Assembly (NCBI GenBank): GCA_963839865.1
Contig: CAWIWS010000020.1
Location: forward strand, 569,814-633,813
Source of the DNA: an uncultured Acidobacteriota bacterium
Lineage (GTDB): Bacteria > Acidobacteriota > Vicinamibacteria > Vicinamibacterales > UBA2999
DNA: 64,000 bases
Direction of reading: 5' to 3'
Notes under the pieces: model-generated
Database searches by the model: none
The model's input: only the letters and a program-made list of their open reading frames with translations
Told to the model about the DNA's origin: nothing
In this document: piece after piece, positions 10,500 through 60,875 of the stretch
Layout of the letters: the number at the start of each line of letters is the position of its first letter
Numbering within the stretch: the stretch's first letter is position 1
Position numbers and translations under genes: made by a program

Positions 10500-10509
10500 A
10501 CAAGGTGTC

Positions 10510-12799: not shown

Positions 12800-12826
12800 G
12801 ACCGGCAAAGCCGGACGCAAATCGAC

Positions 12827-16894: not shown

Positions 16895-17003
16895 CGGGAG
16901 GGGACGCTTGACGGGATCAATCCTCCCGACGAGCATCACTTCCCGTCAAGTGTCCCCGTCCCGTCAAGCTTCCCCCTCCCGTCAAGTGTCGGTTCCCGTC
17001 AGC
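16861..17003. repeat. CTTGACGGGA / TCCCGTCAAG tandem-repeat palindrome filling a convergent intergenic region
   Basis: Three 17-18 bp units ending CTTGACGGGA on the left, three to four reverse-complement units on the right. Unit order on the right arm is permuted (3',1',2'). It overlaps the last codons of the kinase gene. Confidence 0.7.
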
Positions 17004-24072: not shown

Positions 24073-27000
24073 AGAAGATGTGCCCAATCCCGACATACCA
24101 CCGGGCGCTCTTGAGGCTGTTGGCCGCGCGCGTGGAGGTCGGGGTGACCAGGTCGGCGGGGATCCCGACGTCCGCGCGCAGCAGGCCCACCGGCGTGTTG
24201 AGGCGCAGGCCGCCACCGTAGCCCACCTTCAGGCTCCCCAACGACAACGACTCGTCCTGGTGCGTGATGGTGCCGGCGTCGATGAACGCGACGCCGCCCA
24301 CCCACTTCGACAGGGTGAACCGCGCCTCCTCGTTAAGCACCACCATCGACTGGCCGCCCTCGGGCAGCCCGAAGAAGTCCGTCGGCCCGAGGCCGCCTTC
24401 CCCGTAGCCGCGCACCGTCGTGGCGCCGCCCGCGCGGAAGCGATCGCTCGGCAGCAGCTCGTCCGGCCCGAACACCAGGCCCAGCTGCGCGCGCGACGCG
24501 AGCACGAGGCGCCGACCCATCGGCGCGAAGTAGAACTGCTGCAGCAGCAGCTTGCGATTGGTCACGTCCGCCGCCAGCCAGTCCGCGGCCTGTTCCCAGG
24601 ACGCCGACGAGAACGTGCCGCGGCGCGAGTTCAGAGGGTCGTCACGCCGATCCCACAAGACGGCGGCTGTGATCCGGCCGAGGTTCGCCGTGAAGTCGAG
24701 CGGCAGCGGATCGATCGGTGACGGGTCGGGGTCGTAGGTGTGATTGCGCTCGTACCGGTATCCGTAGACCACCTGCACGCCGTTCCTGCGCCACCGCTGC
24801 TCCACGCTGGCGCCAATGCGATCGGCCAGCGCCGAGATTTCGTCCGCATCGTCGCGCAGGCGCTGGCGCTCGACAAAGCTGTAGAGCAGTGAGCGCGCGC
24901 GCCAGCCGAAAAGCCGGGACGTGCCAAAGAAGATGTTGGCGTCCTGGGTGTCGTATTGGTATTGCGCGAAGCCGCCGACCGTGAGCGCGCGGCCGAACAA
25001 GTTCTGGTTCTTCACTTCCGCCACGACGCCGAAGTTTTCCTTGCTGGCGAATTCCTCGATGGACGGCGTGCGTTCGCCTTCGAGCTGGAAGCCGTAGCGC
25101 AGGGTCCACTCCGGATATTCCTGCACCGTCACCGCCGCGCGAACCGGCTGGACGCCGTCGACGACGTCCCCGACCGGTTGGGCATCGATGTCCACGCGGC
25201 GAAACACGTTCGTGTCGTAGAGGCGCTTGCGCGCGACCGACCAGTCGTCCAGGTTGACGGGCTTGCCCACGGAGAAGCGCAGCGCCTCGGCCACGACGTT
25301 GGGATTGGTGTGGTCCGCGCCGGCGGTGGTGACCGCCTGCAGCACCTGCTGCGGTCCCTCGACCACCGCGAAAGTCACGACCACCGCGTCGCCGTCGCCC
25401 ACGGCGGTCTCGGCGTCCACTTCCGCCGCGTTGAACCCGTCCAGGCGGTACCGATCCGCGATCCGCTGCCGCGCGTCGCTCACCGCGGAGGAAACGAACG
25501 GCGACGGCGGCAGGATCATCGCCGCGCCGCGCGCGGCCGCGAGGCGCGTTTCAGCGACGCCTGAGAAGCGCACCTCGCTAATGCGCGCCTGCGGGCCCTC
25601 GACGATGCGCACGGGCAGCACGCCGGTGGTGTCCTCGATGTCCAGCGGACCGGCGGTAACGGCGGCCTTCAGGTATCCCGCGTCACGATACAGCGACTGA
25701 ATCGCGGTCGCCACGGCCGATGGATCGATCCACGCCTCCAGGTCCAGGCCCGCGCCGGTGACCTCGGCCTTCAGCCTGTCGGACGAGACGGCGGTGTTGC
25801 CCAGGAAGCGAATCTCGCGCGCCGTCACCGGCGCGCCAGGCGTCACGTCGATGCGCAGGCGCTTGGCGTCCGCCGACGGCCGCTCCATCGTGCCCACCAC
25901 GATGTTCGCGATGCTGCCGCTGGTGACGAGGTAACGACGCACGCGCGTGGTGACCTCGTCGATCAGGAACGGGTCGAACACGGTGCGCGTCCAGGCGGCC
26001 TGGAGCGCCTTGAGTTCCGAGGCGGGCAGGTCGGCGCCGCGCACCACCAGCGTCGTGACAGGGCCGGGGTCCACGCGGTATTCCAGCGTGATGCCGCGGC
26101 CGCCCTCGCCCTCGATCCGGCGCACGCGGACACGCGCCTCGAAGCGGCCCTGCGCGTGCAGGGCGTCGCGGACGGCGTCGATGTCGCGCTGCAGGTCGAG
26201 GAACTCGAGAGGGTCGCCGGGGCCGAGCTTGATGTGTTTCCGCGCGTCCGCCTCGACCGCCGGCGTGGCGTCCACGAACGTGACGGCCACCACCGTGGGG
26301 CGCGCGGCCCTCACGCTGCCCGGCGTCTGGCCGCCGCCGCCGAACGTGACCTGGTGGCGGATGCCGAGCCCCAGCGTCGCGTTGTCCCTCGAGAGACCGC
26401 GCAGTTCGAGGTTGGGCCAGGGGAAGTAGCTGACGATCACGGTGGACTTGCCGCTCTCGCGGAGGTTCTGCGACAGCGTGACCTCGACCTGGCTGCTGAC
26501 GCGCTTGGCGATGGTGAGGCGCGTGGCCGGATCGGCCTCGTTCGCCACGAGCAGGGGATCCTCGCGGAAGTCGGTGTCCACGTAGTCGCCGCGCTCCACG
26601 CGCAGCGCGTCGAGGCCGATCGCCCGGCCGGTGAGGCCGAGCACGTCGGCGGAGAGCAGCGTCAGCGCGCTGCCGGCCCCGGCGCCGCCGCCCACGATCT
26701 CCGCCGCCAGCTCGCCGCTGGTCTTCGAGCCGTCCTCCGACGTGAGGTCGATCGAGGGATGGTCCAGCGTGCCCGTCAGCGTCATCGTCACCGTGTCGGT
26801 GCCGACGCGGGCGTCGGCCGCGATGTTGAACTCGGGCTCGATGCGGCGAAGGTTGGTGAACGACACGTCGCCGCGCGTGAGGCGGAACGTGCGGCCGGCG
26901 AGATACACGCTCCCGGCCTCGCGCATCGTCACGCGGCCGGTCATGCCCGGGGCCGCCACGGTGCCGACGACGCGAAGGTTGGCGCCGGCCTCGAAGCGGC

Positions 27001-30000
27001 CATAGTTGTTGTCGACCACGATGTCCTCGGTGGTCGTCACGCCCAGGTTGAGGCGGATGCGATCGAGATAGGGCTGCGCGACAACGGGGACCGACGGCGC
27101 CGCCGTCCGGCGCGCGAGCGCGGCGAGCGAGATCGTGTCGGTGTAGGCGCTGCGTTGGACGCGGATGTCGCCGGTGACGGTCGGGGATTTCGGATCCGGC
27201 ACGAACGTGACGAGCCCGTCAATCTCGCTGCGCAGGCCCCTGGGAAATTCGAGCGCCACGCCCTCCGCGTTGATGAAGATGGCGCCACCCGAGAGTTCGC
27301 GGCCATCGATCTCCACCGAGCCGCCGATGGCCACCTTGCCGCCGTTGGCAAGGCCCGTGATGGCGCCGAGACGGATCGTCCGGCCCTCGAGCATGATCGG
27401 ACCCGCGAGCTCGGTCAGCACCATGCGCGGATCGGAGATCGCGAGCTCGGCGTCGGCCAGCGTGATGCGGCCCTGGAGCGAGGGCGCCTCGAAGGTGCCG
27501 GTTACGCGCGCGTCGAGGTCGGCGGTGCCGTCGAAGCCCACCGTGGGCGCGAACGCGGAGAGCACGCGGAGATCCACCAGGCCGGTGACCGACATCTCAA
27601 TCGGCGACTCGCGCTCCGACGAGAGGTCGAGGGTCCCCGACAGGTTGAGCGGGTTGCCGGCGACGGTCCAGGTCATGTCCGCGAGGGTCACGTGCCCCGT
27701 GGCGAGCTCGATGCGCGAGGGTCGCGCCTGCTCGACGGGCAAGCCGGAGAATGTGAACGACGCCGTCTCGAGGTCGAGCGAACCGTCGACCGCCTTCAAC
27801 TCGAACGTGGGCACGCGCGCGCGGCCGCTGGCGGAGAAGTCTCCCAGGATGCCGGCCGTCGCCACCGTGCCGGAGATGCGGGGCATCGTGAGCGTGTCGC
27901 CGTCGAGCGTGGCCTCCAGCGAGAGGTTCCGGAGCACCGGCGATTCCGCGGTGGGCCCCACGGTGGCGTCGCGCACGGCCAGCGTGGCCGACGTGCCCGC
28001 GCGCTGCCCGTTGGACCTGAACACCACCGAGACGGCGCCCGTGGCATCGGCCGTGACCGGCAGGCCGAAGGCGCGCCCCATCCGCACGAGCTCCTGCAGC
28101 GCGCCGTCGAAGGTCCCTTTCAGTTCGCCGTCGAGCCGATCGGTCCACTCCCCAGACGCACTGAGGCGCCCGGCCCCTACGCGCATGTTCACCTCGTCCA
28201 GCGTGAGGCGCTTGTCGACCAGGCTCAAGTGCGCGGGCGCGGTGAGCGCGAGGGGCACCCCGCCGACGGTGACGTCAATCTCCTGGAGGTTCGCGTAGAC
28301 GGTGGGATTGGTGTTGCCCTCGAGCGCGCCCGACGCGGTGGCGCTCAGGCTGACCGCGCCGAGGACGCCGCCTTCGAGCGCGTCGACCATCGCGGCCAGC
28401 GGCTCCAGCGTGACGCGGTTGAACGCGCCCGTGGCGCGGTACTGGTACGGCGCGGCCGTCTGCACCGTGCCCGTGACCAGCGCACCGAGCGACGGGGCGC
28501 GCGCCATGAAGCGCGCGTGGTCGCCCAGCAGGTCAACGGTGACGTCGCCGCTGCCCACCAGCGCGCCGGCGGTCCCGCCCGATACGGCGAACTCAATCCG
28601 TCCGGCGCCGGCCGGACGATCGATCGTGCCCGCACCATCGAACTGCGCCTGGAGCACCGCGTGGGTGTCGCCCTCTTTCAGGAGCGAGCCGGTCCACGTG
28701 AGGCCCTGGCCCTTCAGGCTCGCGGTGTAGCTGCCGGCGTCCCAGTCGTACCGCAGGCGCCCCGTGATGGCGCCCGCGCCTTCGCGCAGATCGATCGAGG
28801 TGATATCGACGGCCTCCGCGGTGACGCGCCCGGTGGCCACGAGGCTGTCGACGGATTGATCCGCGAAGGTCAGAGACTGCCCTTCCACCGTTCCATCAAG
28901 AAAGAACGCGTCGAACGTTCCGCCGAGCGTGGCGGTGGCGCGAATGGGTCCGCTCAGCCGCCACGCGTCCGGCAGCGCGGCTTCGAGCGCCGAGGCGTCG
29001 GGCGCGTTCACCTGCAAGGCACCGGTCAGCGTTTCTTTCGTGATGTTCGCCGTGACGTCTCCGGTCACGCGGGCCGTGCCGCGTGCGAGATCGATGGAGG
29101 ACACGGTCACGTCGCGGACGCTGCCCTCGACGTTGGCGCCGCCCCGGACGGCGCCCAGCGAGGGAACCTCCACGGCCTCGGTGGCGAGCCGGGCCTGGTA
29201 GCGGGGATCGGCGAAGGAACCAGACAGCACGATCGGCACGTCCACCGCGCCGTGCAGTTCGCGCACGATCGCGGGGATCGTGATGCCAAACGTCGAGAGA
29301 CTGGCGGCGGCCGTGGCGACGTCGAGGACCTGCGCGTGCGCATTGCCGGCGAGCGTGCTCCCCCCGGCTCCCGACTCCCGGCTTGCCCTGAGCTTGGTCG
29401 AAGGGCTCCCGACTCCCGATTCGATCTCCCCCTCCACCCGCCCGTCGACGTTGAGGCCGTCCATGTGATGCGCGTGATCGAGCGTCCAGCGATCTCCGAC
29501 GAGCCGGCCGTCGAGCGTGCCGCTCACCGCGACGAGGCCCTTGCCCGCGCTGGGCGTCGCACGGTTCGCGACCTGGAGCCGGCGCGGGGCGGAGGCCTCA
29601 AACGTCAGCGATCCCTCGAGCCGCGACCCGAGCGGCTGGGGCGCGACCTCACCCAGTCGCAACGCCGCGCGGGCATCGACGCCGTGCCACTCCGCGCGCG
29701 CCTGCGAGGGCGCGTCGCCGAAGGGCACGGTGAACGACGCGACGAGCGTGCCGCCCGTGGCGGGTGTCAACGTCACGCCGCCGCTCGTCACGGCATCGAG
29801 CGTGACGCGAATGGGCCCGGCGATGCGCAGGCCGCGCTCGAGGCCCACCGACAGGTCGTCGCCGCTGGTGGTGAAATCGATCGTGGGCTCGTCCGCGGGG
29901 CCCGTGATGGCGCCGGCGATCCGCACGGAGCCGGCGACGGCCACGGGCGGCGGCACCCACGCGGCGGCGGACGCCACGTCGGTCGTGCCGTCGAACGCCA

Positions 30001-30733
30001 GGTCCAGCGCCGGCGCGTCGAGCGTGCGTGTCACGCGGCCCTTGACGGTCACGTCGACTTCGGCGGCCTTCAGCCGGAACCCGTCGAACGTCACGCCGGA
30101 TCCGTCGAAGGCGAGCTGGGTCTCCGTCGGCGCCAGCGTCAGCGTCCGGTCCTGCACGCGGAGCGCGGTGTTCCCGCGGATCGCGAAGAGGCCGCCCGCG
30201 CCCGGCGCCCGGTTGGCGAGATCCGCATCGATGTCCGGGACCCGGAGGTCGAAATCGCGCAGCACGTCGGTATAGCGGATCTGGAACGCGTGCAGGCCGA
30301 GGCCGCGGACGTCGAGACGCCGCGGCGTCGCCGGCGCCGGCCCGCCGTCGGACGGCGGCAAATTGGTGACGTCGTGCGCGTCGCGGCGAATGTCGACCAC
30401 ACCGCCGTCGATGTCGAGCCGATCGATGGAGAAGTGGCCGCGATAGGCGGCCCACGGCAGTCGGACCTCGATGCGCCGGGCGACGAGGAACGGCGCGTCC
30501 TCGTGGCCCACGGCGGCGAGGCGCACCTCGGTGACGACGACCCGGCGCGTGAGCGCGTTGTAGTCCAGCGCGCCCGCCTGGAGGGTCAGGTCATAACGGG
30601 TCAGGAAGCCGGTGGCCCAGGCGAGGACGCGTGCACGGGTCCAGGGCGTATGGACGGCCAGCAGGGCCACGGTGGCCAGCGCGACCGCTCCACCGGCCGC
30701 CAAGGCCACGCCCCTTCTCCACCGCGTCGCCAT
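24071..30733 (-). CDS. TamB-like (AsmA/DUF490) protein fused in one ORF to a POTRA + Omp85/BamA-TamA-type beta-barrel
   Basis: Uninterrupted 2220-aa ORF. N-terminal signal-anchor ALAAGGAVALATVALLAV, then a long repetitive beta-rich region. DUF490-like end ...TVIVSYFPWPNLELRGLSRDNATLGLGIRHQVTFGGG at about 26335. POTRA-like repeats follow directly (VVAVTFVD..., REIRFLGNTAVSSDRL, ISEVRFSGV). Omp85 barrel ends ...RFRAGGATTVRGYGEGGLGP...ARWYVGIGHIF. Confidence 0.75.
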   Translation of the reverse strand: MATRWRRGVALAAGGAVALATVALLAVHTPWTRARVLAWATGFLTRYDLTLQAGALDYNALTRRVVVTEVRLAAVGHEDAPFLVARRIEVRLPWAAYRGHFSIDRLDIDGGVVDIRRDAHDVTNLPPSDGGPAPATPRRLDVRGLGLHAFQIRYTDVLRDFDLRVPDIDADLANRAPGAGGLFAIRGNTALRVQDRTLTLAPTETQLAFDGSGVTFDGFRLKAAEVDVTVKGRVTRTLDAPALDLAFDGTTDVASAAAWVPPPVAVAGSVRIAGAITGPADEPTIDFTTSGDDLSVGLERGLRIAGPIRVTLDAVTSGGVTLTPATGGTLVASFTVPFGDAPSQARAEWHGVDARAALRLGEVAPQPLGSRLEGSLTFEASAPRRLQVANRATPSAGKGLVAVSGTLDGRLVGDRWTLDHAHHMDGLNVDGRVEGEIESGVGSPSTKLRASRESGAGGSTLAGNAHAQVLDVATAAASLSTFGITIPAIVRELHGAVDVPIVLSGSFADPRYQARLATEAVEVPSLGAVRGGANVEGSVRDVTVSSIDLARGTARVTGDVTANITKETLTGALQVNAPDASALEAALPDAWRLSGPIRATATLGGTFDAFFLDGTVEGQSLTFADQSVDSLVATGRVTAEAVDITSIDLREGAGAITGRLRYDWDAGSYTASLKGQGLTWTGSLLKEGDTHAVLQAQFDGAGTIDRPAGAGRIEFAVSGGTAGALVGSGDVTVDLLGDHARFMARAPSLGALVTGTVQTAAPYQYRATGAFNRVTLEPLAAMVDALEGGVLGAVSLSATASGALEGNTNPTVYANLQEIDVTVGGVPLALTAPAHLSLVDKRLTLDEVNMRVGAGRLSASGEWTDRLDGELKGTFDGALQELVRMGRAFGLPVTADATGAVSVVFRSNGQRAGTSATLAVRDATVGPTAESPVLRNLSLEATLDGDTLTMPRISGTVATAGILGDFSASGRARVPTFELKAVDGSLDLETASFTFSGLPVEQARPSRIELATGHVTLADMTWTVAGNPLNLSGTLDLSSERESPIEMSVTGLVDLRVLSAFAPTVGFDGTADLDARVTGTFEAPSLQGRITLADAELAISDPRMVLTELAGPIMLEGRTIRLGAITGLANGGKVAIGGSVEIDGRELSGGAIFINAEGVALEFPRGLRSEIDGLVTFVPDPKSPTVTGDIRVQRSAYTDTISLAALARRTAAPSVPVVAQPYLDRIRLNLGVTTTEDIVVDNNYGRFEAGANLRVVGTVAAPGMTGRVTMREAGSVYLAGRTFRLTRGDVSFTNLRRIEPEFNIAADARVGTDTVTMTLTGTLDHPSIDLTSEDGSKTSGELAAEIVGGGAGAGSALTLLSADVLGLTGRAIGLDALRVERGDYVDTDFREDPLLVANEADPATRLTIAKRVSSQVEVTLSQNLRESGKSTVIVSYFPWPNLELRGLSRDNATLGLGIRHQVTFGGGGQTPGSVRAARPTVVAVTFVDATPAVEADARKHIKLGPGDPLEFLDLQRDIDAVRDALHAQGRFEARVRVRRIEGEGGRGITLEYRVDPGPVTTLVVRGADLPASELKALQAAWTRTVFDPFLIDEVTTRVRRYLVTSGSIANIVVGTMERPSADAKRLRIDVTPGAPVTAREIRFLGNTAVSSDRLKAEVTGAGLDLEAWIDPSAVATAIQSLYRDAGYLKAAVTAGPLDIEDTTGVLPVRIVEGPQARISEVRFSGVAETRLAAARGAAMILPPSPFVSSAVSDARQRIADRYRLDGFNAAEVDAETAVGDGDAVVVTFAVVEGPQQVLQAVTTAGADHTNPNVVAEALRFSVGKPVNLDDWSVARKRLYDTNVFRRVDIDAQPVGDVVDGVQPVRAAVTVQEYPEWTLRYGFQLEGERTPSIEEFASKENFGVVAEVKNQNLFGRALTVGGFAQYQYDTQDANIFFGTSRLFGWRARSLLYSFVERQRLRDDADEISALADRIGASVEQRWRRNGVQVVYGYRYERNHTYDPDPSPIDPLPLDFTANLGRITAAVLWDRRDDPLNSRRGTFSSASWEQAADWLAADVTNRKLLLQQFYFAPMGRRLVLASRAQLGLVFGPDELLPSDRFRAGGATTVRGYGEGGLGPTDFFGLPEGGQSMVVLNEEARFTLSKWVGGVAFIDAGTITHQDESLSLGSLKVGYGGGLRLNTPVGLLRADVGIPADLVTPTSTRAANSLKSARWYVGIGHIF
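29358..29417. repeat. GGGAGTC-family element (copy 2), inserted in frame inside the TamB-like region
   Basis: The reverse complement reads GGGAGTCGGGAGCC CTTCGACCAAGCTCAGGGCAAG CCGGGAGTCGGGAGCC. It encodes ...ESGVGSPSTKLRASRESGAGG.... Confidence 0.6.
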
Positions 30734-30765
30734 CCCTTCGATTCTAGTCTCCTAATCGGCTACCA

Positions 30766-49431: not shown

Positions 49432-49629
49432 GGAAGGAGCCCCTGGTAATTTGGTAGATCAGAACAGTGTCGACAGTCTCTCGCCTAGGTCCGCAAGCGG
49501 ATGGTAGCCTTCTCGTGGGCCGCGCCGGACCAAATTCGACCGCCAGGGAGTCCAGGCTTCCTGGCGCCCAGGTGTCCCATGCATCGTTCGTCGATTGAAT
49601 CCACCGCATCCGACGGCAGATCTTTGGCC

Positions 49630-49668
49630 CGCTACTTCCGGCCGCAACGCCGTCGGCTGCAGCCGCCT
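49630..49668 (-). other. degenerate terminal attC-like site
   Basis: CGCAACGCCGTCGGCTGCAGCCGCCTGTTAGAGG retains the conserved GTCGGCTGCAGC..GC.TGTTAG half of the other attC sites, but the partner half is short and degenerate. Confidence 0.4.
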
Positions 49669-49669
49669 G

Positions 49670-50080
49670 TTAGAGGGCTCGTGCCTTTCCGGATTCCGTG
49701 TTCGATCCTTCGAGACGTGCCGACCTGGCCCCGCTCATGCGCCTCACGATGACGTCCAGGGTGATCGCGAGCGCGATGCCCGCCGTGTTTGCCACAAGGT
49801 CAAGGCGATCGTACACGTTCTTCATCAGGCCAAAACCGTCCAACACCTCGAACAGTTGCACGACCATGAACGCGAGCGCCGCCGCGGATGCGCGTGGGAG
49901 GTGCGACCGGGCCGTCACACGCCTCGCCAAGAAGTACACCGCGAACGACGCAGCAACGTTGCCGCCATAGCTCTGAACGAGCTCATCGGCAGGGCCTGCG
50001 TAGTGGCCTTTGAGCACAAGACCGCCGACGCCGAGCAATACAAAGAGGACGTCTTGAGCGCGTCTCGACATCTGCAACAC
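49670..50080 (-). CDS. cassette 8: small integral membrane protein, function unknown
   Basis: 136-aa ORF with 3-4 hydrophobic segments (VLFVLLGVGGLVL, AASFAVYFLA, LAFMVVQLF, TAGIALAITLDVIV). The GTG start lies in the attC core, with an ATG at 50071. Confidence 0.5.
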   Translation of the reverse strand: MLQMSRRAQDVLFVLLGVGGLVLKGHYAGPADELVQSYGGNVAASFAVYFLARRVTARSHLPRASAAALAFMVVQLFEVLDGFGLMKNVYDRLDLVANTAGIALAITLDVIVRRMSGARSARLEGSNTESGKARAL

Positions 50081-50198
50081 CTAACGCCGTCTCTCGCAGC
50101 CCGTCGGCGCAGGAACTGTCCGTTTAACGCTTGCGCTCACCCGCGGCCCCGGGGGGGCTCTTGACAAGGCGGCCGCCGGGTGCAGCGCGTGGTTAGGC
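50079..50198 (-). other. attC site (120 bp)
   Basis: ACCTAAC at 50079-50085 and GTTAGGC at 50192-50198, with an internal imperfect palindrome. Confidence 0.7.
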
Positions 50199-50214
50199 AC
50201 CGTTTTGGGCTCCT

Positions 50215-51009
50215 TCACCGTGCTGTCAGCGGCTCCAAGCCGGTTTTTCGAATGATAGAGGCGGAGGCTGACGACGCGAAGAAATCGATGAGATCCTTTG
50301 CGGCCTCCGGCCGCTTGGCGCCCACGACGACGCCCGCGGAGAAGACAGTCACTCGTTGCGCCGCTGGCGGAAGAGGCCCTACGTACTCGATGCCTGAAAC
50401 GGGGAGCAGTTCGCTGATCTGCTGAAACCCGATCTCAGCCTCGCCCCGCGCCACCACTGCTCCAACGGGCTCGGCCAGGATCTCCTTGCTCTTACCGAGG
50501 ATTTGATCGGCAATACCGAGGCGTTGGAACAATTCCTTGGAAAGGTAGACGCCGCTAGCGCTGGAGGAGTAGGCGATGGACTTGGCGCCCAGCAGCGTTC
50601 TCTTGAGTGCCTCGATGGAGCTGATATCAGGCTTGGGCGTTCCGGCTCGAACCGCCATGCCGATGCTTGAACGCACGAGCTGCACGCGGCTATTCGGCAT
50701 GACCTTACCGCGCTTGACCAACTGAAGTAGCGCCTCGTCTGCCAGGATGACCACGTCGGCCGGCTCACCCCGGTCCAGTCGACTAGGAATGGTGGTTGGG
50801 CCTTCCCCCATCGAAGCTCCGGTGATCGTCACGACCGTGCTGTGCGTGGTGCGCTCGAACTCCGGCACCAGTTGGAGAAACGCAGCACTGAACGCGCCGG
50901 ACGTCATAACCCTCAGTTCTTGTGCGCTGGCATGCGCAGACGCACACCACATCAGCCCGATGGTGATGAATGTCCTTGCGATTCGACCAGCAATGGACTT
51001 TGGTTTCAC
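50215..51009 (-). CDS. cassette 7: periplasmic substrate-binding protein (ModA/PBP-like)
   Basis: Signal peptide. LRVMTSGAFSAAFLQLVPEFE...ADVVILADEALLQLVKRGKV...IAYSSSASGVY...IGFQQISELLPVSGIEYVGPLP is typical of molybdate/tungstate-type SBPs. Confidence 0.65.
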   Translation of the reverse strand: MKPKSIAGRIARTFITIGLMWCASAHASAQELRVMTSGAFSAAFLQLVPEFERTTHSTVVTITGASMGEGPTTIPSRLDRGEPADVVILADEALLQLVKRGKVMPNSRVQLVRSSIGMAVRAGTPKPDISSIEALKRTLLGAKSIAYSSSASGVYLSKELFQRLGIADQILGKSKEILAEPVGAVVARGEAEIGFQQISELLPVSGIEYVGPLPPAAQRVTVFSAGVVVGAKRPEAAKDLIDFFASSASASIIRKTGLEPLTAR

Positions 51010-51049
51010 TGCAGTCCCCGATCAGATGCCGTTGTTCACGAATCCGTGC

Positions 51050-51143
51050 GCCTAACGCATGGCGGTTGAGCGGCCGGCGGTAACCGTCACCCGCATGAAG
51101 CAGCTAGCTTATCTCGCCGGTCCGCTCCAACCGCTGGTTAGGC
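51050..51143 (-). other. attC site (94 bp)
   Basis: GCCTAAC at 51050-51056 and GTTAGGC at 51137-51143. Confidence 0.75.
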
Positions 51144-51182
51144 TGCTTCGCGGACCGCGCGCCGCGAATCGCGTCCAAGTTG

Positions 51183-51663
51183 TCACTTTGTCGCAGGAAG
51201 GCTGTTCCAGATATCCCGATGCAGCTTCCAGGAGCCATCGACCTGCCGCTTCCAGACCACCACGTACTTGGCCATCGCCGTCGTCGGCTCCTTTCCCGCC
51301 GACTGAATCGTTAGGGAGACGTTCCCTACTTCGTCGGCGACGTCACCACTCCTGCCCACATCAATGGTTGTCAGCGCCGCACTCTGAACCCCGCCATCCC
51401 TTTGAGCCTTCCAAAACTCTCCGATGGCTCCGTTTCCGCGGATCATCTCGCTGTCTGGCGGAAATGCGATCGCGTCGGACGTATACATCGCGGAGAGGGC
51501 TTTGGCGTCGCCCCGTGCAAAGGCCTCGCTGAACTTGGCGTTCGCCGCCTCGATAGCGGCTCGCGCGTCACGTATGCCTTCGTCGTTCGCTTTCGATCCT
51601 GCACAAGCAGTCGACGAAATCGCCGATCAGGCCGAAAAGGACAACCGCTCGTGTGGACAACAT
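51183..51663 (-). CDS. cassette 6: secreted SnoaL/DUF4440-like protein, one apparent frameshift near 51600
   Basis: MLSTRAVVLFGLIGDFVDCLC leader, then (other frame) AIEAANAKFSEAFARGDAKALSAMYTSDAIAFPP...KYVVVWKRQVDGSWKLHRDIWNS. Confidence 0.6.
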
Positions 51664-51739
51664 GCGCACCTCCGTTGAACCGCATTGAGCCAACATCGTG
51701 ATACCTCAAAGTATCTCGACGCTTCACACCCTGGAAGCA

Positions 51740-51835
51740 GCCTAACGACCGGCCGCTCAGCCGCGAGCGGCGGGCACGGTCACGCGAAGGAGTCTAAACC
51801 AACTGCCGCTCGTCGGTTGCAGCGGCTTGTTAGGC
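51740..51835 (-). other. attC site (96 bp)
   Basis: GCCTAACGACCGGCCGCTCAGCCGCGAGCGGC...GCCGCTCGTCGGTTGCAGCGGCTTGTTAGGC. Confidence 0.85.
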
Positions 51836-51857
51836 TGCGCGGAGAGCTAAGGGGCCG

Positions 51858-52373
51858 TCACGCCTCGCGCGCGCCAGCCCGCACTATACGAGCGGTGACC
51901 GAAAGCTGCCCGACGTGGCGCATCGCGTGCTCAGCGCCATGCACCAGGCAACCGATGACGGTCGAAGGGAGCTGGGCCCGTCCCACGCCACGAAAGTCGC
52001 CAAGTGTTGCAACATCGATCGTGCGAAGCTCCGCAATGGCAGTGTCCACTCGTGTCGATAAGGCGCCCAGAACTGACGCCACATCCGCAACGAGAAGCTC
52101 CTGGCCTTCCGACCGAATCGCCGCGAGTTGTTCTGCAGACAATGCGTTCCCTCGGGCGTAGGCAAAGAGGCGATCGATGACTCCGGCAATATGTCGCACA
52201 TGGAACGCGGCGGAGGCCACCCCGGCAGGCCGGGCGTTCCATTCTTGCTCCGTCAAAGGCTCGACGATCTCACCGACACTCTCGCGCACTTGAAGAAGAA
52301 TGTGCGCGATTGGTTGAAGGACGGCGGGCACGCCGTCGATGGGACCGCGCTGCCACCACTCGGTGTTCGCCAT
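51858..52373 (-). CDS. cassette 5, second ORF: DinB-family protein
   Basis: Met at 52373. WNARPAGVASAAFHVRHIAGVIDRL...LVHGAEHAMRHVGQLSVTARI is the DinB four-helix His-triad pattern. Confidence 0.65.
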   Translation of the reverse strand: MANTEWWQRGPIDGVPAVLQPIAHILLQVRESVGEIVEPLTEQEWNARPAGVASAAFHVRHIAGVIDRLFAYARGNALSAEQLAAIRSEGQELLVADVASVLGALSTRVDTAIAELRTIDVATLGDFRGVGRAQLPSTVIGCLVHGAEHAMRHVGQLSVTARIVRAGAREA

Positions 52374-52425
52374 CTGTCTTCGACTCCCTCGTGGAAAGCG
52401 ACCCGCCACGCCACAGGGCGCGACA

Positions 52426-52755
52426 TCAATCGACGATGAACAGGCGGGCGCCAACACTTGTGTGAGAGCGATGAGGTTCAGCGTTGTCTGACACTTGATA
52501 GCTCATGCCTGGACGCAGCGTGAACGAGCGACCGTCTTTGAGCTCGGTGTGAAGCTCGCCGTGGATGCAAAGAAGAATGTGGCCCTTATCGCACCAGTGA
52601 TCTGACTTGTAGCCGGGCGAATACTCAACCGTACGAACACGAATGTCACCGAACATCTTGGTTCGCCAGACAGCGAGACCAACCTCGCCTTTGTGTTCGG
52701 TACTCTCAACCTTGGACCAGTCGGTTGTAGCGAACGGAATGGACGACATGTGCAT
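52426..52755 (-). CDS. cassette 5, first ORF: small cupin-fold protein
   Basis: 109 aa. IRVRTVEYSPGYKSDHWCDKGHILLCIHGELHTELKDGRSFTLRPGMSY is a cupin beta-barrel pattern. Confidence 0.6.
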   Translation of the reverse strand: MHMSSIPFATTDWSKVESTEHKGEVGLAVWRTKMFGDIRVRTVEYSPGYKSDHWCDKGHILLCIHGELHTELKDGRSFTLRPGMSYQVSDNAEPHRSHTSVGARLFIVD

Positions 52756-52776
52756 GAGGCGATTCTCTCCTGAGCG

Positions 52777-52873
52777 GCCTAACGCCCTGGCGCTCAGCCG
52801 CGAGCGGCAGCTACCTTCTTCGCAAAGGGGTCTAAACCATCTGCCGCTCGTCGGCTGCCGCGGCTGGTTAGGC
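52777..52873 (-). other. attC site (97 bp)
   Basis: GCCTAACGCCCTGGCGCTCAGCCGCGAGCGGC...GCCGCTCGTCGGCTGCCGCGGCTGGTTAGGC. Confidence 0.85.
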
Positions 52874-52878
52874 CGCTT

Positions 52879-53169
52879 CTACGCCGCGCCGAGCGACTCA
52901 CGCGAACCGTGATGAACGGTCAATACGTGAATCTCGCTTGAACTGACGATTCGGTAGACGATTCGATCGGGACGAAGAACGACCTCGCGCACTTCCGGAT
53001 CGCTGAACTCTGGCACGGCACGACCAGAATGCGGGAAATCCTGCAAACGCTCAACGGCACCAAGAAGCCGCCGTACGGTGACTGTCGCGTAGTGAGTCGA
53101 ATCCGCTTCAATGAACGCGTGGATCGCGGCCAAGTCGTCCTGTGCGCGCTCGGTCCAGAGGATAGTCAC
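52879..53169 (-). CDS. cassette 4: ParE/RelE-family type II toxin
   Basis: ILWTERAQDDLAAIHAFIEADS...LQDFPHSGRAVPEF...VREVVLRPDRIVYRI...IHVLTVHHGSR. 4-nt overlap with the upstream antitoxin ORF. Confidence 0.75.
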   Translation of the reverse strand: MTILWTERAQDDLAAIHAFIEADSTHYATVTVRRLLGAVERLQDFPHSGRAVPEFSDPEVREVVLRPDRIVYRIVSSSEIHVLTVHHGSRESLGAA

Positions 53170-53354
53170 GCCAGAAAGCGCTTCTTGACCTCGTCGTGAC
53201 TAACCACTTGCCCGGCGCGCGACTGCTGGAGCCCCTCTTCGATCTTGGCGATGAAGCACAGCCGCTCGATTGCGTCCTCGATAGTCGCACCATCGGGCAA
53301 CGAACGGATGGCCTCAAGGGCGCGCTGCTTGTCCGTTTCGGTTGGCATGATCAA
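53166..53354 (-). CDS. cassette 4: putative antitoxin
   Basis: 62-aa acidic ORF directly upstream of the ParE-like toxin and overlapping it by 4 nt. Confidence 0.6.
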   Translation of the reverse strand: MIMPTETDKQRALEAIRSLPDGATIEDAIERLCFIAKIEEGLQQSRAGQVVSHDEVKKRFLA

Positions 53355-53390
53355 ATCCTAGCATCGTCACAGGGAGATTGCTCGTCGTCG

Positions 53391-53462
53391 GCCTAACGCC
53401 TGGCATCAGCCGCAGCGCGGCTGGAGCCCGCGCCGCGCTGTCGGCTGCATGCCCTGTTAGGC
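53391..53462 (-). other. attC site (72 bp)
   Basis: GCCTAAC at 53391-53397 and GTTAGGC at 53456-53462. The TAA stop of ORF 53457-53930 lies inside the inverse core. Confidence 0.8.
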
Positions 53463-53930
53463 GGCACGCCTCTCATCACTACCAGTGCCCATGACCTGCG
53501 CCGCCATCCATAGAAACAACCCTGCACACGCCGCATACGGAATCCGGCGATACCAGAAATTGGTCTCGATCAGGCGCGCGAGTAGCTCAAGTGATCGCCC
53601 GTGCGCACTCAGTTCGAGCTGGATTGGCACTTGGATCGTGACGGTGGAGATCCACACTACGGCCTGCATCGCGATCGCGGCCCAAACCGCCCACGCTTGA
53701 ATCACGGCGGGCCGAGACCACAACATCAGGACAGTAAAGACGGTGCCAAGCACGAGTGGTGCGACCAAAAACGCCAGCACGCGCGGGGAGATGAACTGAT
53801 GGTATCCGATGAACTCCGCCTCGCCGATGAGATGCCAACTCGCGTAGTTGACAAAGCCCTCCATGCACGCCGCGCCAGTGCCGTAACAGACGAGTGTAAA
53901 TGCCGTCAAGAAGATCAGGCGCGATCGCAT
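53457..53930 (-). CDS. cassette 3: four-TM membrane protein (DUF1772-like)
   Basis: 157 aa, four hydrophobic helices. The pattern NYASWHLIGEAEFIGYHQFISPRVLAFLVAPL resembles DUF1772 (anthrone-oxygenase-like) proteins. Tentative. Confidence 0.5.
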   Translation of the reverse strand: MRSRLIFLTAFTLVCYGTGAACMEGFVNYASWHLIGEAEFIGYHQFISPRVLAFLVAPLVLGTVFTVLMLWSRPAVIQAWAVWAAIAMQAVVWISTVTIQVPIQLELSAHGRSLELLARLIETNFWYRRIPYAACAGLFLWMAAQVMGTGSDERRAA

Positions 53931-53975
53931 ATCACTCCGCTTTCCGATTGAATGTGCCGCGAGGTCAGCCGAGCC

Positions 53976-54070
53976 GCCTAACGACTTGCCGCTCAGCCGC
54001 GAGCGGCGGCCCGGTCATGCGAAGGAGTCTAATTCATCAGCCGCTCGTCGGCTGCAGCGGCTTGTTAGGC
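53976..54070 (-). other. attC site (95 bp)
   Basis: GCCTAACGACTTGCCGCTCAGCCGCGAGCGGC...GCCGCTCGTCGGCTGCAGCGGCTTGTTAGGC. Confidence 0.85.
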
Positions 54071-54077
54071 GGCGTGT

Positions 54078-54392
54078 TTACAGACGCGGGCCAGTCCCCC
54101 GACTCGCGTGCCAGACAGCAACGACTTGGATCGAGCGGGTAGGAGCCTCGACCACGCGGTAATACACGTGATAGCTCACGCGACTGAGGAGGATTCGGCG
54201 CACGCCGACCAGTCTGGCGTTTCGGGCCCTGGCACCAACGTCCGGCTGAGAGGCGATCAGTTGGAGCGCCTGATCGATCTCGTCGGTCAGCGCGGCAGGA
54301 GCCTTCTCACGGTTCGCGCGCCACCAGTGGGCGGCCTCTTCAACCTGCTTGGACGCTCGCCGCGTGAAGCTGATTGGAAGCTGCTGACTCAC
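54078..54392 (-). CDS. cassette 2: ParE/RelE-family type II toxin
   Basis: ISFTRRASKQVEEAAHWWRANR...IASQPDVGARARNARLVGVRRILLSRVSYHVYYRV...IQVVAVWHASRG. 4-nt overlap with the upstream ORF. Confidence 0.7.
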   Translation of the reverse strand: MSQQLPISFTRRASKQVEEAAHWWRANREKAPAALTDEIDQALQLIASQPDVGARARNARLVGVRRILLSRVSYHVYYRVVEAPTRSIQVVAVWHASRGTGPRL

Positions 54393-54610
54393 ACCCGAGT
54401 CCGGAGCGCGCGCAAGACCTCTTCGGCGGGGATGGTCTCTCCACGATCGCCCTCCGCCATTGACTCGAGAAGCTCCGCCTCGGCCGTGGCGTCGAGTTCG
54501 AAGGTTTCGTCGCCTTCCCGCGAGAGGACCGTCACGACCGCGCCATCTGGCAACGGCTCGCCATCGAGGATGATCTTTCCGGACACGACTCTCCCGGAGG
54601 TAATGACCAT
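54389..54610 (-). CDS. cassette 2: putative antitoxin
   Basis: 73-aa acidic ORF (…ELDATAEAELLESMAEGDRGETIPAEEVLRAL) overlapping the toxin start. Confidence 0.6.
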   Translation of the reverse strand: MVITSGRVVSGKIILDGEPLPDGAVVTVLSREGDETFELDATAEAELLESMAEGDRGETIPAEEVLRALRTRV

Positions 54611-54649
54611 TTCGGTGATTCTAACCCGGATGTCATCCGCGTGTCGTCC

Positions 54650-54747
54650 GCCTAACGCTTGCGGCTCACTTGCGGCGGCCGCACGACGACGTTTCGAACG
54701 GCCCCGATGTTACCGCGGCGGCCGACAAGTGCAGCCGCTGGTTGGGC
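54650..54747 (-). other. attC site (98 bp)
   Basis: GCCTAAC at 54650-54656 and GTTGGGC at 54741-54747. Confidence 0.7.
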
Positions 54748-54773
54748 CGCCTCGAATATCAGACGCTACTCGT

Positions 54774-55332
54774 CTATCGCCTTTGGTGCCCGGTCAGCAA
54801 CGCGACTATCTGGCTGAGCCCGGCCCGCCTCGCCATCTCAACCGGCGTCTCGCAGTCGTCGATTCTGGTCGGACGTTCGGGATCGGAACCCGCCTCAAGC
54901 AAGATCTCCACAGCCTGCAGATTCTCTTCGCTGACCGCCATGTGCAGTGGCGTGTAGTCGTTGATGCCGCGTTGATGTGGATCCGCTCCGAACTCCAGCA
55001 GCAATCGAAGGAGGTCTCTGAGGTCGGGTCTGGTCGAAGCCGTTGGATGGGTTCGACTGCCCGACAACGCCGCGATAAGCGGTGGAAACCCGTCATGATC
55101 AGCTGGGTTCGGATCTGCGCCGATTTCAAGCAGGGTGCGGATGAAGGGAAGGGGACTGTGATAGATCGCGTTTATCGAGACAGCGACCTATCGCCAGTGG
55201 CATGGGCCCATTTGGCACGATTCCGGGGTCATCGACAGCCGCTCGCAATGCGGCAAGATCACCGTCGCGGAAAGCGGCGTCGATCCTCCGGAATTGTTCG
55301 GCCTCCGCGCAGCGTTCTGCTTCAGATTTCAT
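54774..55332 (-). CDS. cassette 1: ankyrin-repeat protein, one apparent frameshift near 55185
   Basis: After the frame switch: IRTLLEIGADPNPADHDGFPPLIAAL...LLRLLLEFGADPHQRGINDYTPLHMAVSEENLQAVEILLEAGSDP (ANK repeats). Confidence 0.65.
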
Positions 55333-55647
55333 GTCCCTTGTCGGCCCAACTAGTAATTAACCTGCGACATCCTACCCCCGATTCTTCCGGTTATCGACGA
55401 ACCATCCAGGCATATCTGCGGCCCCACCCGCGCGCCCACGGTGTTATGCAGGTCTGCGTAATACGGGACACGTCCCGCTGGTAACCATGGCGCCACGCCC
55501 GGGCGATGCCCTTCTCGCACGCAGGCCAGTCGCCAGAATTGCGGCGCCGGCGAGCCCACGGGATGGAAGAAACTGCGAGACCCGGCCAGCTTGGCCTGCC
55601 CTTTCCTCGCAAATGCCGTCGGCACAGGATTCGCTTCATCGTCCGGA
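55333..55647. promoter_or_regulatory. intI-cassette intergenic region: expected attI site and divergent Pc/PintI promoters
   Basis: Position between intI and the first cassette. Candidate crossover core on the cassette strand is GGTTAATTA, about 55352-55362. A 6-bp inverted repeat CGGGAC-AC-GTCCCG lies at 55464-55477. No promoter was verified. Confidence 0.4.
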
Positions 55648-56628
55648 ATGCCACCCAGCACACCCGCCGCCAAACCGCGACTCCTCGATCAACTTCGCCA
55701 TGCCTGCCGACTCCGCCACTTCAGTCCGCGCACCGAAGAGGCCTACTGCCTCTGGTCTCGCCGATTCATCCTCTTCCACGGCAAGCGACACCCCGCCATC
55801 TCGGCGCGGAAGACGTCACCCGCTTCCTGTCGTCGCTCGCAACCGACCACCACGTGAGCGCCTCCACTCAGAACCAGGCGCTCTGCGCACTGCTGTTCCT
55901 CTACCGCAGCGTCCTCGCGCGCCCGCTGGACAACCTGCCGGAGATCACCAGGGTCCGCACACCACCGCACCTGCCCGTCGTCCTCACCCGCGCCGAAGTG
56001 CGAGCCGTCCTGAGACACCTCTCCGGTGTCCCGGGAATCGTCGCGTCGCTTCTCTATGGGTCGGGCCTCCGCTTGCTCGAATGCCTGGCGTTGCGTGTGA
56101 AGGACCTCGACCTCGAACGCGGCGAGATCACCGTTCGCCAAGGCAAGGGCCGCAAGGATCGCATCACCATGCTGCCGTCCAGCGTGGTCCCGGCCCTCAG
56201 AACCCACCTCGATGCCGTCCACCGCCTCCATGAGCAGGACCTCGCTGTCGGCCTCGGCCGCGTCGTCATGCCAGATGCGCTCGACCTGAAGTACAAGGGC
56301 GCCGCGACGTCGTGGCCCTGGCAATTCGCCTTCCCCGCGGGCCGCATCTGCCGGGACCCGCGGTGGGGCTCACCGACGCGGTTCCACCTGCATGAGACCG
56401 TCATCCAACGAGAGATGACAGCCGCCGTCCGCAAGAGCGGCGTCACCAAGCGCGCCACCTGTCATAGCCTCCGCCACTCGTTCGCCACGCACCTGTTGGA
56501 AGACGGCTACGACATCCGCACCGTGCAGGAACTCCTCGGCCACGCGCGACGTGAGCACGACGATGATCTACACGCACGTGCTGAATCGCGGCGCCCTGGG
56601 CGTGAAGAGCCCGGCGGACCGGCTCTAG
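55648..56628 (+). CDS. intI: integron integrase IntI (tyrosine recombinase), 2 apparent frameshifts (about 55795 and about 56545)
   Basis: [61 protein letters not shown] (Arg). IntI-specific insertion [52 protein letters not shown]. In a third frame [14 protein letters not shown], with stop at 56626-56628. Confidence 0.85.
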
Positions 56629-56846: not shown

Positions 56847-56882
56847 GGTCCGGCTAAAGCCGGACACCACAGTCAGGTCCGG

Positions 56883-56901
<19 letters not shown>
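56847..56901. repeat. two tandem copies of a hairpin REP unit GGTCCGGCTAAAGCCGGACAC(C/T)ACAG
   Basis: Copies at 56847-56872 and 56876-56901. Each has the stem TCCGGC/GCCGGA. They overlap the last codons of the topoisomerase A gene. Confidence 0.75.
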
Positions 56902-59357
<2,456 letters not shown>

Positions 59358-59390
59358 GGCTCAATCAGGATAACAGAACCGAGGCGTACG

Positions 59391-59489
59391 GGCCACAGAG
59401 ACACAGGAACGGAGAATTCCTTCTAAACGCAGTGCCGCTAAGCAGCGCTGCCCGAAAATAGTCTTCCGTGTCTCCGTGTCTCTGTGGCC
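59391..59489. repeat. long hairpin whose arms are GAGACAC(G/A)G-type short repeats (putative terminator/REP)
   Basis: The left arm GGCCACAGAGACACAGGAACGGAGAA (59391-59416) pairs with the right arm TCTTCCGTGTCTCCGTGTCTCTGTGGCC (59462-59489). Lies between the FAD oxidase stop and the topoisomerase A start. Confidence 0.65.
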
Positions 59490-59495
59490 TGGTAT

Positions 59496-60875
59496 TTACA
59501 TCCCGGGAATCAACTTCCCCGGATTCATCAGGTTCTGCGGATCGAGCGCGCGCTTGATCGTGCGCATCACGTCGAGGGCGTCGCCGTGCTCGCGCTCCAG
59601 GTACTTCAACTTGCCGATGCCCACGCCGTGCTCGCCGCTGCAGGTGCCGCCGAAGCGCAGCGACGCGCTCGACCAGCCGCTCGCAGAGCGCGGTCACGCG
59701 CGCGAATTCCGCCGGGTCGCTCGGGGTCCAGCATGATGATCAGGTGGAAGTTGCCGTCGCCGGCGTGCCCCACGAGCGGCGCCTCGACGCCCGTCTCGCG
59801 GATGTCGGCCTGCGTCTCGAGGATGCACTCGGCCAGGTGCGCGATGGGCACGCACACGTCCGTGGTCCACGCCCGCGCGCCGGGCCGCGACGCCACGCGT
59901 GGCGTAGTACGCGTTGTGCCGCGCCTGCCAGAGCGTGGCGCGGTCCTCGAGCGTGGACGCCCACTGGAAGCCGCCGGCGCCGTGCTCGCGCGCGATCTCC
60001 TCCACGGCGCGGATCTGCTCGTCCACCATCGCCTCGTTGATGCCGTGGAACTCGAAGAAGAGCGTCGGCGCGAGCGGGTAGTTGGTCTTCGAGTACGCGT
60101 TCACCACGCGCGAGCTGCGCCTCGTCGATGATCTCCATGCGCGCGACGGGGATGCCCAGCTGGATCGTCTGGATCACCGTGTTGGCGGCGCCTTCCATCG
60201 ACTGGAACTGGCACACCGCCGAGCGCACCGCCTCGGGCCGGCCGTAGAGGCGCAGCGTCACCTCGGTGATCACGCCGAGCGTGCCTTCGGATCCGACGAA
60301 CAGCCGCGTGAGGTCGTAGCCGGACGAGGACTTCCGCGCGCGGCCGCCCGTCCGGATGACGCGGCCGTCCGCCAGCACCACCGTCAACCCCAGCACGTTC
60401 TCGCGCATCGTCCCGTAGCGGACGGCGGTGGTGCCCGACGCGCGCGTGGCCGCCATGCCGCCGATGGTGGCGTCGGCGCCGGGGTCGATCGGGAACATCA
60501 GGCCCGTGTTCTTCAGGTGATCGTCGAGCTTGAGGCGCGTGAGGCCCGCCTCCACCGTGACGTCCATGTCGTCGGGGCTCAGGCGCAGCACGCGCGTCAT
60601 GCGCGTCAGGTCGATCGAGACGCCGCCGTGGATCGGCGTTGACGTGCCCCTCGAGCGAGCTGCCCATGCCGAACGGCACGATCGGCACGCGGTGCGCGCG
60701 CGCAGGCGGCGACGATGGCGGACACTTCGTCGGTGGTCGTCGGGAAGACGACGGCGTCGGGCATCGCCGGGGCGTGCCAGGACTCGCCGTGGCTGTGGTG
60801 CTCGCGGACGGCGTTCGCCGTCGACACGCGGTCGCCGAGGGTGGCCCGGAGTTCCTGAATCAAGTTGTCAGACAT
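59496..60875 (-). CDS. FAD-linked oxidase (GlcD / D-lactate dehydrogenase family), 5 or more apparent frameshifts
   Basis: [85 protein letters not shown]-terminus [17 protein letters not shown] with stop at 59496-59498. Confidence 0.75.

Follow-up and report, generated by a model that had tools for sequence, protein, structure and literature searches.

The window analysed here is a stretch of 64,000 nt from an uncultured Acidobacteriota bacterium (GCA_963839865.1, contig CAWIWS010000020.1, positions 569,814 to 633,813). It carries at 49630-56628 a tyrosine recombinase gene beside a row of small open reading frames (ORFs) separated by imperfect palindromes. An earlier note, made from the letters alone, took this region for a sedentary-type chromosomal integron with an integrase gene, intI, eight cassettes and a homogeneous family of attC sites, and it pointed to two frame breaks within intI. 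The locus raises the question whether an integron is present at all and, if so, whether its integrase is intact and whether the element is resident or mobile. The region very probably harbours a complete integron on the chromosome of a Vicinamibacterales-like soil acidobacterium, with frame breaks that are most likely errors of the assembly.

The integrase

The intI gene occupies 55648-56628 on the plus strand and is spread over three frames as assembled. Joining the three frame segments by bridging two 1-nt breaks yields a protein of 326 aa, which reaches 419.3 bits with the integron integrase model TIGR02249 (cut-off 265), covering model positions 1-315 of 315. A reading without any integron, in which a XerC/D-type recombinase stands by chance beside repetitive extragenic palindromic (REP)-like intergenic repeats, can draw only on generic tyrosine-recombinase similarity. 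The XerC, XerD and XerA models give 130-160 bits with the bridged protein, well under their own cut-offs. Alignment with the Vibrio cholerae integrase VchIntIA (2A3V) is gapless from end to end (E 3e-80) and includes the IntI-specific insertion (residues 190-245), which the earlier note had recognized in the translation; the alignment of XerA breaks into two pieces and skips residues 190-244. The aligned counterparts of VchIntIA R135, K160, H267, R270, H293 and Y302 are all kept in the bridged protein (R, K, H-x-x-R, H, Y). With the frame breaks bridged, 55648-56628 encodes an integron integrase of full length.

Identity to IntI1 of class 1 integrons amounts to 52.8%. The nearest integrases are 66-78% identical and come from metagenome-assembled genomes (MAGs) annotated as Vicinamibacterales, Acidobacteria or Acidimicrobiia. 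Close homologues in metagenomes number in the thousands. The protein collection searched held no copy from the same species, the nearest entry being 78% identical.

The attC sites

The motif GCCTAAC/GTTAGGC occurs 12 times in the window, both strands taken together, against 2.4 +/- 1.6 expected. None of 100 shuffles reaches 12, and all 12 occurrences lie between 50192 and 54656. Seven attC sites have been delimited, with RYYYAAC/GTTRRRY cores in which GCCTAAC, GCCCAAC or GTTTAAC is paired with GTTAGGC or GTTGGGC. Their lengths of 72-98 nt lie inside the criterion range of about 57-141 nt. Neighbouring sites are 0.5-1.0 kb apart; in an integron, attC sites are expected no more than 4 kb from intI and from one another. 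For the attC sites, the bottom strand is the plus strand of the window.

Six of the seven sites form hairpins by DNA folding, with z between -3.9 and -6.3. The consensus structure comprises a 7-bp R box, an asymmetric unpaired spacer (5 nt against 2 nt) and variable terminal loops, and 9 of its 24 pairs show compensatory changes. Folding of the bottom strand in search of extrahelical bases, a check proposed in the earlier note, revealed single-base bulges confined to the 3' arm of the plus strand, at 16 and 23 from the 3' end and with a 6-bp stem between them. The positions are exactly 16 and 23 in four sites; the others have 15/16 and 23 (attC4), 17 and 23 (attC6) or 15 and 22 (attC3). Functional attC sites carry extrahelical bases at 16 and 23/24 with 6-bp spacing (Nivina et al., 2016, PMC5027507).

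A covariance model (CM) was built from the seven window sites alone and served as a surrogate for the attC model of IntegronFinder. It assigns 50-103 bits to the seven sites on the plus strand and 17-29 bits on the minus strand, and nothing else in the window exceeds 18 bits. Counted from intI, attC1 (54650-54747, 98 nt, plus strand as all others; z -3.9) scores 83.6 bits on the plus and 16.6 bits on the minus strand, shows bulges at 16 and 23, and is 84-91% identical to two attC sites of the related contig L004. A near-identical subfamily is formed by attC2 (53976-54070, 95 nt; z -5.1; 101.5 bits; bulges C16 and T23), attC4 (52777-52873, 97 nt; z -6.3; 97 bits) and attC5 (51740-51835, 96 nt; z -4.3; 103.1 bits). 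The remaining sites are attC3 (53391-53462, 72 nt; z -5.3; 50.6 bits), attC6 (51050-51143, 94 nt; z -4.9; 84.5 bits) and attC7 (50122-50198, 77 nt; 55.3 bits), the last with GTTTAAC as L core and a canonical fold with bulges at 16 and 23. Mean pairwise identity of the seven is about 66%. Only attC2, attC4 and attC5 reach 83-90%, and the cores are almost uniform. The earlier count of four sites with near-identical arms comes down to these three, attC3 being only a relative.

The distal end of the array is less regular. An orphan half-site at 50079-50121 (plus strand) consists of ACCTAAC and an R'-L' arm that resembles the 5' arms of the family and has no complementary partner; a cassette that was lost has probably left it behind. 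A degenerate terminal attC at 49599-49675 (plus strand) has lost the outer R' core; its R''-L'' arm GCCGTCGGCTGCAGCCGCCTGTTAGAG is still present, as is an inner stem about 12 bp long. Two candidates were rejected here. A 120-nt attC at 50079-50198 does not fold (z 0.1), and its inner 77-nt part is the canonical site attC7. The terminal copy was discarded as a functional attC: the CM does not recognize it with a threshold as loose as E<=10, and nothing but the inner stem and a single arm is left. The seven palindromes of 72-120 bp plus a decayed copy described before are thus present as seven attC sites and one decayed copy, with the supposed 120-bp site resolved into the 77-nt attC and the half-site. 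Left of 49.6 kb, where small same-strand accessory genes at 39.8-49.5 kb might represent older decayed cassettes, the CM gave no attC-like signal above noise.

Transfer of the covariance model

Applied to 86 loci of IntI relatives from many phyla, the CM detected 132 sites at E<=1e-3, in arrays adjoining integrase genes. In the clinical class 1 integron estX-psp-aadA2-cmlA1-aadA1-qacL it found exactly six sites (E 4e-7 to 2e-3; the next match has E 0.65), one behind each cassette gene, with the strand orientation correct throughout. The attC sites of dfrA14 and aac(6')-IIa were recovered as well. A Klebsiella MAG contig (L078, IntI 59% identical) considered as class 1 control contained no attC sites, and annotated plasmid integrons were used instead. 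Because the model transfers to class 1 arrays, the palindromes of the window share sequence and structure with experimentally established attC sites.

The attC of cmlA1 (L212, 1811-1880), the top-scoring class 1 site with 34.6 bits, has two arm motifs, GCTCAGCCG and TCGGCTGCAGCG, in common with the window family. A palindromic repeat cluster, TTGACGGGA / TCCCGTCAA, lies at 16850-17000 of the window and gives weak CM matches of about 18 bits on both strands. A copy of this cluster with 79% similarity stands in the spacer between intI and the topoisomerase gene of L004 (11052-11123); the corresponding spacer of the window has none.

attI and the history of recombination

The attI site extends over 55350-55490 and contains the conserved block CTAGTAATTAACC. 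Crossover takes place at 55349/55350, between the last A and the final C of GCCCAAC on the plus strand. In an alignment of the window with the integrons of L001 and L004, the C followed by TAGTAATTAACC directly right of the crossover is conserved, and the left, cassette side is unrelated. Since the right side is conserved and the left side divergent in three integrons, attI is defined to the base. The heptamer GCCCAAC at 55344-55350 (GTTGGGC on the top strand) is the perfect complement of the R core GTTGGGC of attC1.

Integron cassettes are circularly permuted and carry the last six bases of their R' core at their own 5' start, within the upstream attC or attI. This permutation is visible in the related integrons: the R core pairs perfectly with the L core of the intI-proximal neighbour at 10 of 11 junctions in L001 and at seven of eight in L004, and the R cores there are usually mismatched with the L core of their own site. 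The cores of the window are nearly all identical and leave only two informative junctions, both of which fit. The first joins attC1 (GTTGGGC) with attI (GCCCAAC); at the second, attC7 has GTTAGGC, which fits the L core of attC6 and not its own GTTTAAC. The core-swap junctions and the conserved attI demonstrate a real history of cassette recombination. A Xer-type recombinase among REP-like repeats is refuted by these junctions together with the match to the integron-integrase model, the IntI-specific insertion, the strand-asymmetric attC geometry and the recognition of clinical attC sites by the window CM, and its probability is negligible.

Further to the right, about 95-135 nt from the crossover, the window has two blocks in common with L001 and L004, GTTATGCAGGTCTGCGTAATAC (55443-55464) and GCTGGTAACCA (55477-55487). 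The former resembles the accessory IntI1-binding repeats GTTA(T/C)GCAG of attI1 and could be an integrase-binding or promoter element.

On this basis the integron would operate as follows. An active IntI would recombine the folded bottom strand of an attC, i.e. the plus strand of the window, with the double-stranded attI at 55349/55350, which would insert a cassette; recombination between two attC sites would excise one. The outcome would be the present array, the eight cassettes of which would be read from a presumed promoter in the direction away from intI. Two ParE-type toxin-antitoxin cassettes would stabilize the array, and its distal end, with one degenerate attC and one orphan half-site, is decaying.

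Frame breaks in intI

Both frame breaks that had been reported for intI are present in the sequence. The first is a 1-nt deletion at 55788-55794 (about 55791, plus strand), where one C is missing from a C run (CCCC instead of CCCCC). The second is a 1-nt insertion at 56544-56548 (about 56547, plus strand), an extra base in GCGCG context (CACGCGCGACG versus CACGCG-GACG), just upstream of the catalytic tyrosine. A tblastn search with the IntI of L004 places the frame switches at 55791-55794 and 56546-56548. Cassette 1 (about 55185) and cassette 6 (about 51622) contain frame breaks as well.

The breaks continue beyond the integron. Next to intI, the gene of a type IIA topoisomerase A subunit (GyrA/ParC family; 56922-59357, minus strand; NF004044, 779 bits), taken as the internal control for errors of the assembly, is split over four frames, with 3 frame breaks in comparison with the intact 813-aa orthologue of the short-read contigs L004-L006. 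The adjoining FAD-oxidase gene is split over at least 3 frames, with at least 2 breaks relative to intact orthologues and uncompensated 1-nt indels at 59665, 60112 and 60699. These indels are often an extra base in GCGC/CGCG context, the same signature as the second break of intI. A frame tracker based on GC at third codon positions recovered the known breaks and listed at least 18 candidates over the 64 kb. Examples are found at about 1016, 1402, 2315, 2729, 13563, 14767, 15119 and 18682, and further ones at about 34508, 37388, 38307, 44547, 61429 and 61673; the broken genes span 56922-60863. The many one-base additions in GCGC/CGCG context suggest a systematic long-read error. Two related contigs, L087 and L088, have similarly truncated gene calls, and their contig_NNN names look like those of long-read assemblies.

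The alternative is an integrase truly inactivated by two frameshifts, with a frozen array that would be changeable only by integrases in trans, as is often the case in Xanthomonas chromosomal integrons. Two breaks within 981 nt, the second of which takes the catalytic tyrosine out of frame, fit such a course, as do the degenerate distal attC with the orphan half-site, the breaks in cassettes 1 and 6, and the unbroken state of certain long genes of the window. Inactivation is nevertheless unlikely: the density of breaks is equal or greater in the topoisomerase and FAD-oxidase genes, the candidates extend over the whole window, the second intI indel bears the signature of several FAD-oxidase indels, and L087 and L088, seemingly long-read contigs, are affected in a similar way. 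The integrase gene itself is free of in-frame stops and of catalytic substitutions and keeps 76-78% identity to its relatives over the full length. Assembly error is preferred because the adjoining genes are equally broken, candidates occur window-wide and intI is otherwise undamaged. Accordingly, the two breaks are with high likelihood assembly indels, and the integrase is probably intact. Between the two explanations that the earlier note had offered, inactivated integrase or sequencing error, the evidence leans to the latter and disfavours a pseudogene.

Several observations weigh against a complete integron with assembly errors and have to be set beside it. The intI frame as assembled lacks the catalytic tyrosine and, judged from the assembly in place of reads, a real intI pseudogene keeps a small probability. 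The breaks are unevenly distributed, a 6.7-kb ORF at 24074-30751 being unbroken. A scan of 55250-55900 with a sigma-70 consensus, which may not suit Acidobacteriota, found neither a sigma-70-like Pc or PintI promoter nor a terminator in the attI and 5' region of intI. The first extrahelical base is a C in every attC of the window, G being usual (PMC5027507). An Rfam scan of the whole window returned no matches; Rfam contains no attC family, and the result is thus uninformative.

For error-prone long-read metagenome assemblies the case advises a check of neighbouring essential genes before a frame-broken intI is called a pseudogene.

Chromosomal location and relatives

The contig of the window is 772 kb long, chromosome-like and furnished with housekeeping genes. 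The topoisomerase gene is nearest to proteins of Vicinamibacterales and Acidobacteria. Together with the nearest relatives of IntI it supports the Acidobacteriota-like host that had been guessed from the sequence. Three related contigs (L004-L006) show intI followed by the topoisomerase gene in the same arrangement, at 87% nucleotide identity. The integron at this site holds entirely different cassettes; its attC sites are 84-91% identical to attC1, and its IntI has diverged to 76%. The search for the same attC family in relatives, suggested earlier, was successful in these contigs and far beyond them, as described below. Retention of the intI-topoisomerase junction in a lineage with IntI diverged to 76% speaks for vertical descent at the site. 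Two equally related genomes (L087 and L088) have no intI or attC at the locus.

A segment of 25.6 kb (31329-56921, from an AhpC/TSA gene to the topoisomerase gene) is replaced by about 4.4 kb in L087 (12406-16826) and L088 (12432-16473). Besides the integron it includes small accessory genes over about 18 kb (GNATs, SDR, HD, RibD_C, DinB-like, SnoaL-like), and its replacement in two related genomes identifies it as a variable hotspot. A mobile integron, or one carried by a genomic island, transposon or plasmid, would account for the position at one end of this segment, for a GC content under that of the flanks, and for an attC arm type common to integrons whose integrases are only 52-70% identical. 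Against mobility stand the 772-kb contig with its housekeeping genes, the distance to IntI1 (52.8% identity), and the conserved intI-topoisomerase junction. A mobile integron of classes 1-5 would have an integrase of one of these classes or lie on a plasmid or transposon, which the window element does not. Neither at 31-49 kb nor beside intI did the analysis detect genes for transposases, tni, conjugation or phages, and a Pfam scan of ten ORFs at 31.6-46.7 kb detected metabolic and accessory genes only and no mobile-element genes. A mobile or island-borne integron is improbable, more so than an inactivated integrase.

Sedentary chromosomal integrons have been defined by more than 19 attC sites, presence in 100% of the genomes of a species and high attC similarity (Cury et al., 2016, PMC4889954). 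The window contains seven intact attC sites, one degenerate site and one half-site, and the CM found no more in 64 kb. The description as sedentary and homogeneous in the manner of the Vibrio repeats holds for the resident chromosomal state and the related attC family. It does not hold for the size of eight cassettes, and it is less well supported by the mean attC identity of about 66% and by the distribution, two of three lineages being without the integron. A small resident chromosomal integron of intermediate type is the most fitting description.

The attC arm itself is widespread. Exact copies of the 31-nt arm are present in at least 120 metagenome contigs, in some of them beside integrases only 52-70% identical. 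This uniform arm is a soil-wide attC type and not a signature of the array. It is conceivable, if rather doubtful, that the integron is an example of a Vicinamibacterales platform restricted to one lineage and fixed beside the topoisomerase gene, which uses this abundant soil attC type (arm GCCGCTCGTCGGCTGCAGCGGCTTGTTAGGC, C16) in common with integrases 52-70% identical. If the C16 geometry reflects a distinct mode of IntI-attC recognition outside Proteobacteria, the specificity of integrases from uncultured soil phyla would become accessible to experiment.

Some further features of these loci deserve record. A 3.6-kb soil metagenome contig (L096, 430-3580) carries seven exact copies of the 31-nt arm at about 520-nt spacing and is far more homogeneous than the window array. 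In L004 (7535-9601), as in L005 and L006, genes for an IS91-family Y2 transposase and a second tyrosine recombinase lie between attI and the first recognizable attC. The classical divergent layout is present in the window, L001, L004, L063 and L067. L008, L009, L019, L031, L032, L036, L039 and others have their attC arrays downstream of intI with the bottom strand opposite ('inverted integrase'). In the spacer between intI and the topoisomerase gene of the window (56848-56894), the perfect hairpin GTCCGGCTAAAGCCGGAC stands twice, 29 nt apart, and it is absent elsewhere in the window (0 expected); a pair of bidirectional terminators or a REP-like element may be concerned. Two paralogous segments with 70-81% identity, each about 2.3 kb long, follow one another at 8303-12800 and look like a tandem gene duplication.

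The cassettes

Eight cassettes with 11 ORFs were located upstream of intI on the opposite, i.e. the minus strand, as the earlier note had claimed. The GC content of the array is 61.7% and that of the flanks 67-68%, in line with the lower value noticed before. Stop codons lie near or inside the inverse core, again as described: inside it in cassettes 3 and 8, and 5-39 nt ahead of it in the others.

Cassette 1 (54656-55349) codes for an ankyrin-repeat protein, with ATG at 55332 and stop at 54774 (bridged protein, Ank_2 5.8e-19). Cassettes 2 and 4 hold toxin-antitoxin pairs whose two ORFs overlap by 4 nt. In cassette 2 (53982-54655) an antitoxin-like ORF (54389-54610) precedes a ParE toxin (54078-54392; ParE_toxin 2.3e-11). 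In cassette 4 (52783-53396) a RelB/ParD-like antitoxin (53166-53354; weak RelB_ParD match) precedes a ParE toxin (52879-53169; ParE_toxin 2.7e-14). Cassette 3 (53397-53981) encodes a 157-aa membrane protein (53457-53930) without family match, the stop TAA of which lies in the inverse core. Cassette 5 (51746-52782) comprises a cupin with DHCW motif (52426-52755; NF038084 DHCW_cupin 3.4e-53) and a DinB-family protein (51858-52373; DinB_2 8.3e-16). A DUF4440/SnoaL-like putative lipoprotein is encoded by cassette 6 (51056-51745; ATG 51663, stop 51183; bridged protein, DUF4440 1.3e-15) and a ModA-like periplasmic solute-binding protein (50215-51009; SBP_bac_11 2.9e-41) by cassette 7 (50128-51055). 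Cassette 8 (49676-50121) contains a 133-aa membrane protein (49670-50071) with a weak VanZ-like match under cut-off (0.006) and a stop inside the decayed inverse core. Family searches of the cassette proteins identified no resistance genes among the eight cassettes.

Homologues of cassettes 2, 4, 6 and 7, those of ParE among them, were met in other contigs for which attC sites had been demonstrated. The antitoxin-ParE pair of cassette 4 is also part of an Eisenbacteria integron array (L036). A metagenome contig (L117) has a 63%-identical homologue of cassette 7 directly before the same attC arm. The cupin of cassette 5 has a homologue in one further locus.

Comparison with known integrons

The superintegron of Vibrio cholerae, the archetype of sedentary chromosomal integrons, resembles the window element in the alignment of the integrase, the chromosomal location, the presence of toxin-antitoxin cassettes and a near-identical attC subfamily. 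It comprises well over a hundred cassettes with a nearly uniform repeat; the window has eight, with attC sites of 72-98 nt and about 66% identity. The repeat VCR2 has three extrahelical bases, G16, T20 and T24 (PMC5027507), whereas the attC sites of the window have two, C16 and T23.

Class 1 mobile integrons share the layout, their attC sites are all recognized by the window CM, and IntI1 is 52.8% identical. The window differs in the lack of Tn402/tni genes, of a 3'-conserved segment and of resistance genes, in its chromosomal location, and in an attI that is unrelated save for the core.

Xanthomonas chromosomal integrons are associated with ilvD. A conserved housekeeping gene as anchor and cassettes that differ between related lineages are common to them and the window (bioRxiv 10.1101/2025.06.18.660453). 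The phylum and the anchor gene are different, and the evidence from the window does not support a decayed integrase.

Integrons of Acidobacteriota are known from surveys and have not been studied experimentally. The description of this background as poorly characterized is true in the experimental sense; acidobacterial integrons and a taxon-specific attC model have already been published (Ghaly et al., 2021, PMC8352920). Soil and freshwater bacteria have chromosomal integrons, among them those with Acidobacteria-type attC, that are alike in the divergent intI, the unidirectional small and mostly uncharacterized cassettes and the taxon-related attC sites (PMC8352920). Nothing essential sets the window integron apart from them. 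Its mechanism contains nothing unexpected or new, and the array, the site beside a topoisomerase gene and the set of cassettes are new instances of a well-known type of gene-capture element. For the Acidobacteriota (Vicinamibacterales) it is one more well-resolved complete integron, in which the attI crossover is exact and both the geometry of the attC sites and the boundaries of the cassettes are defined.

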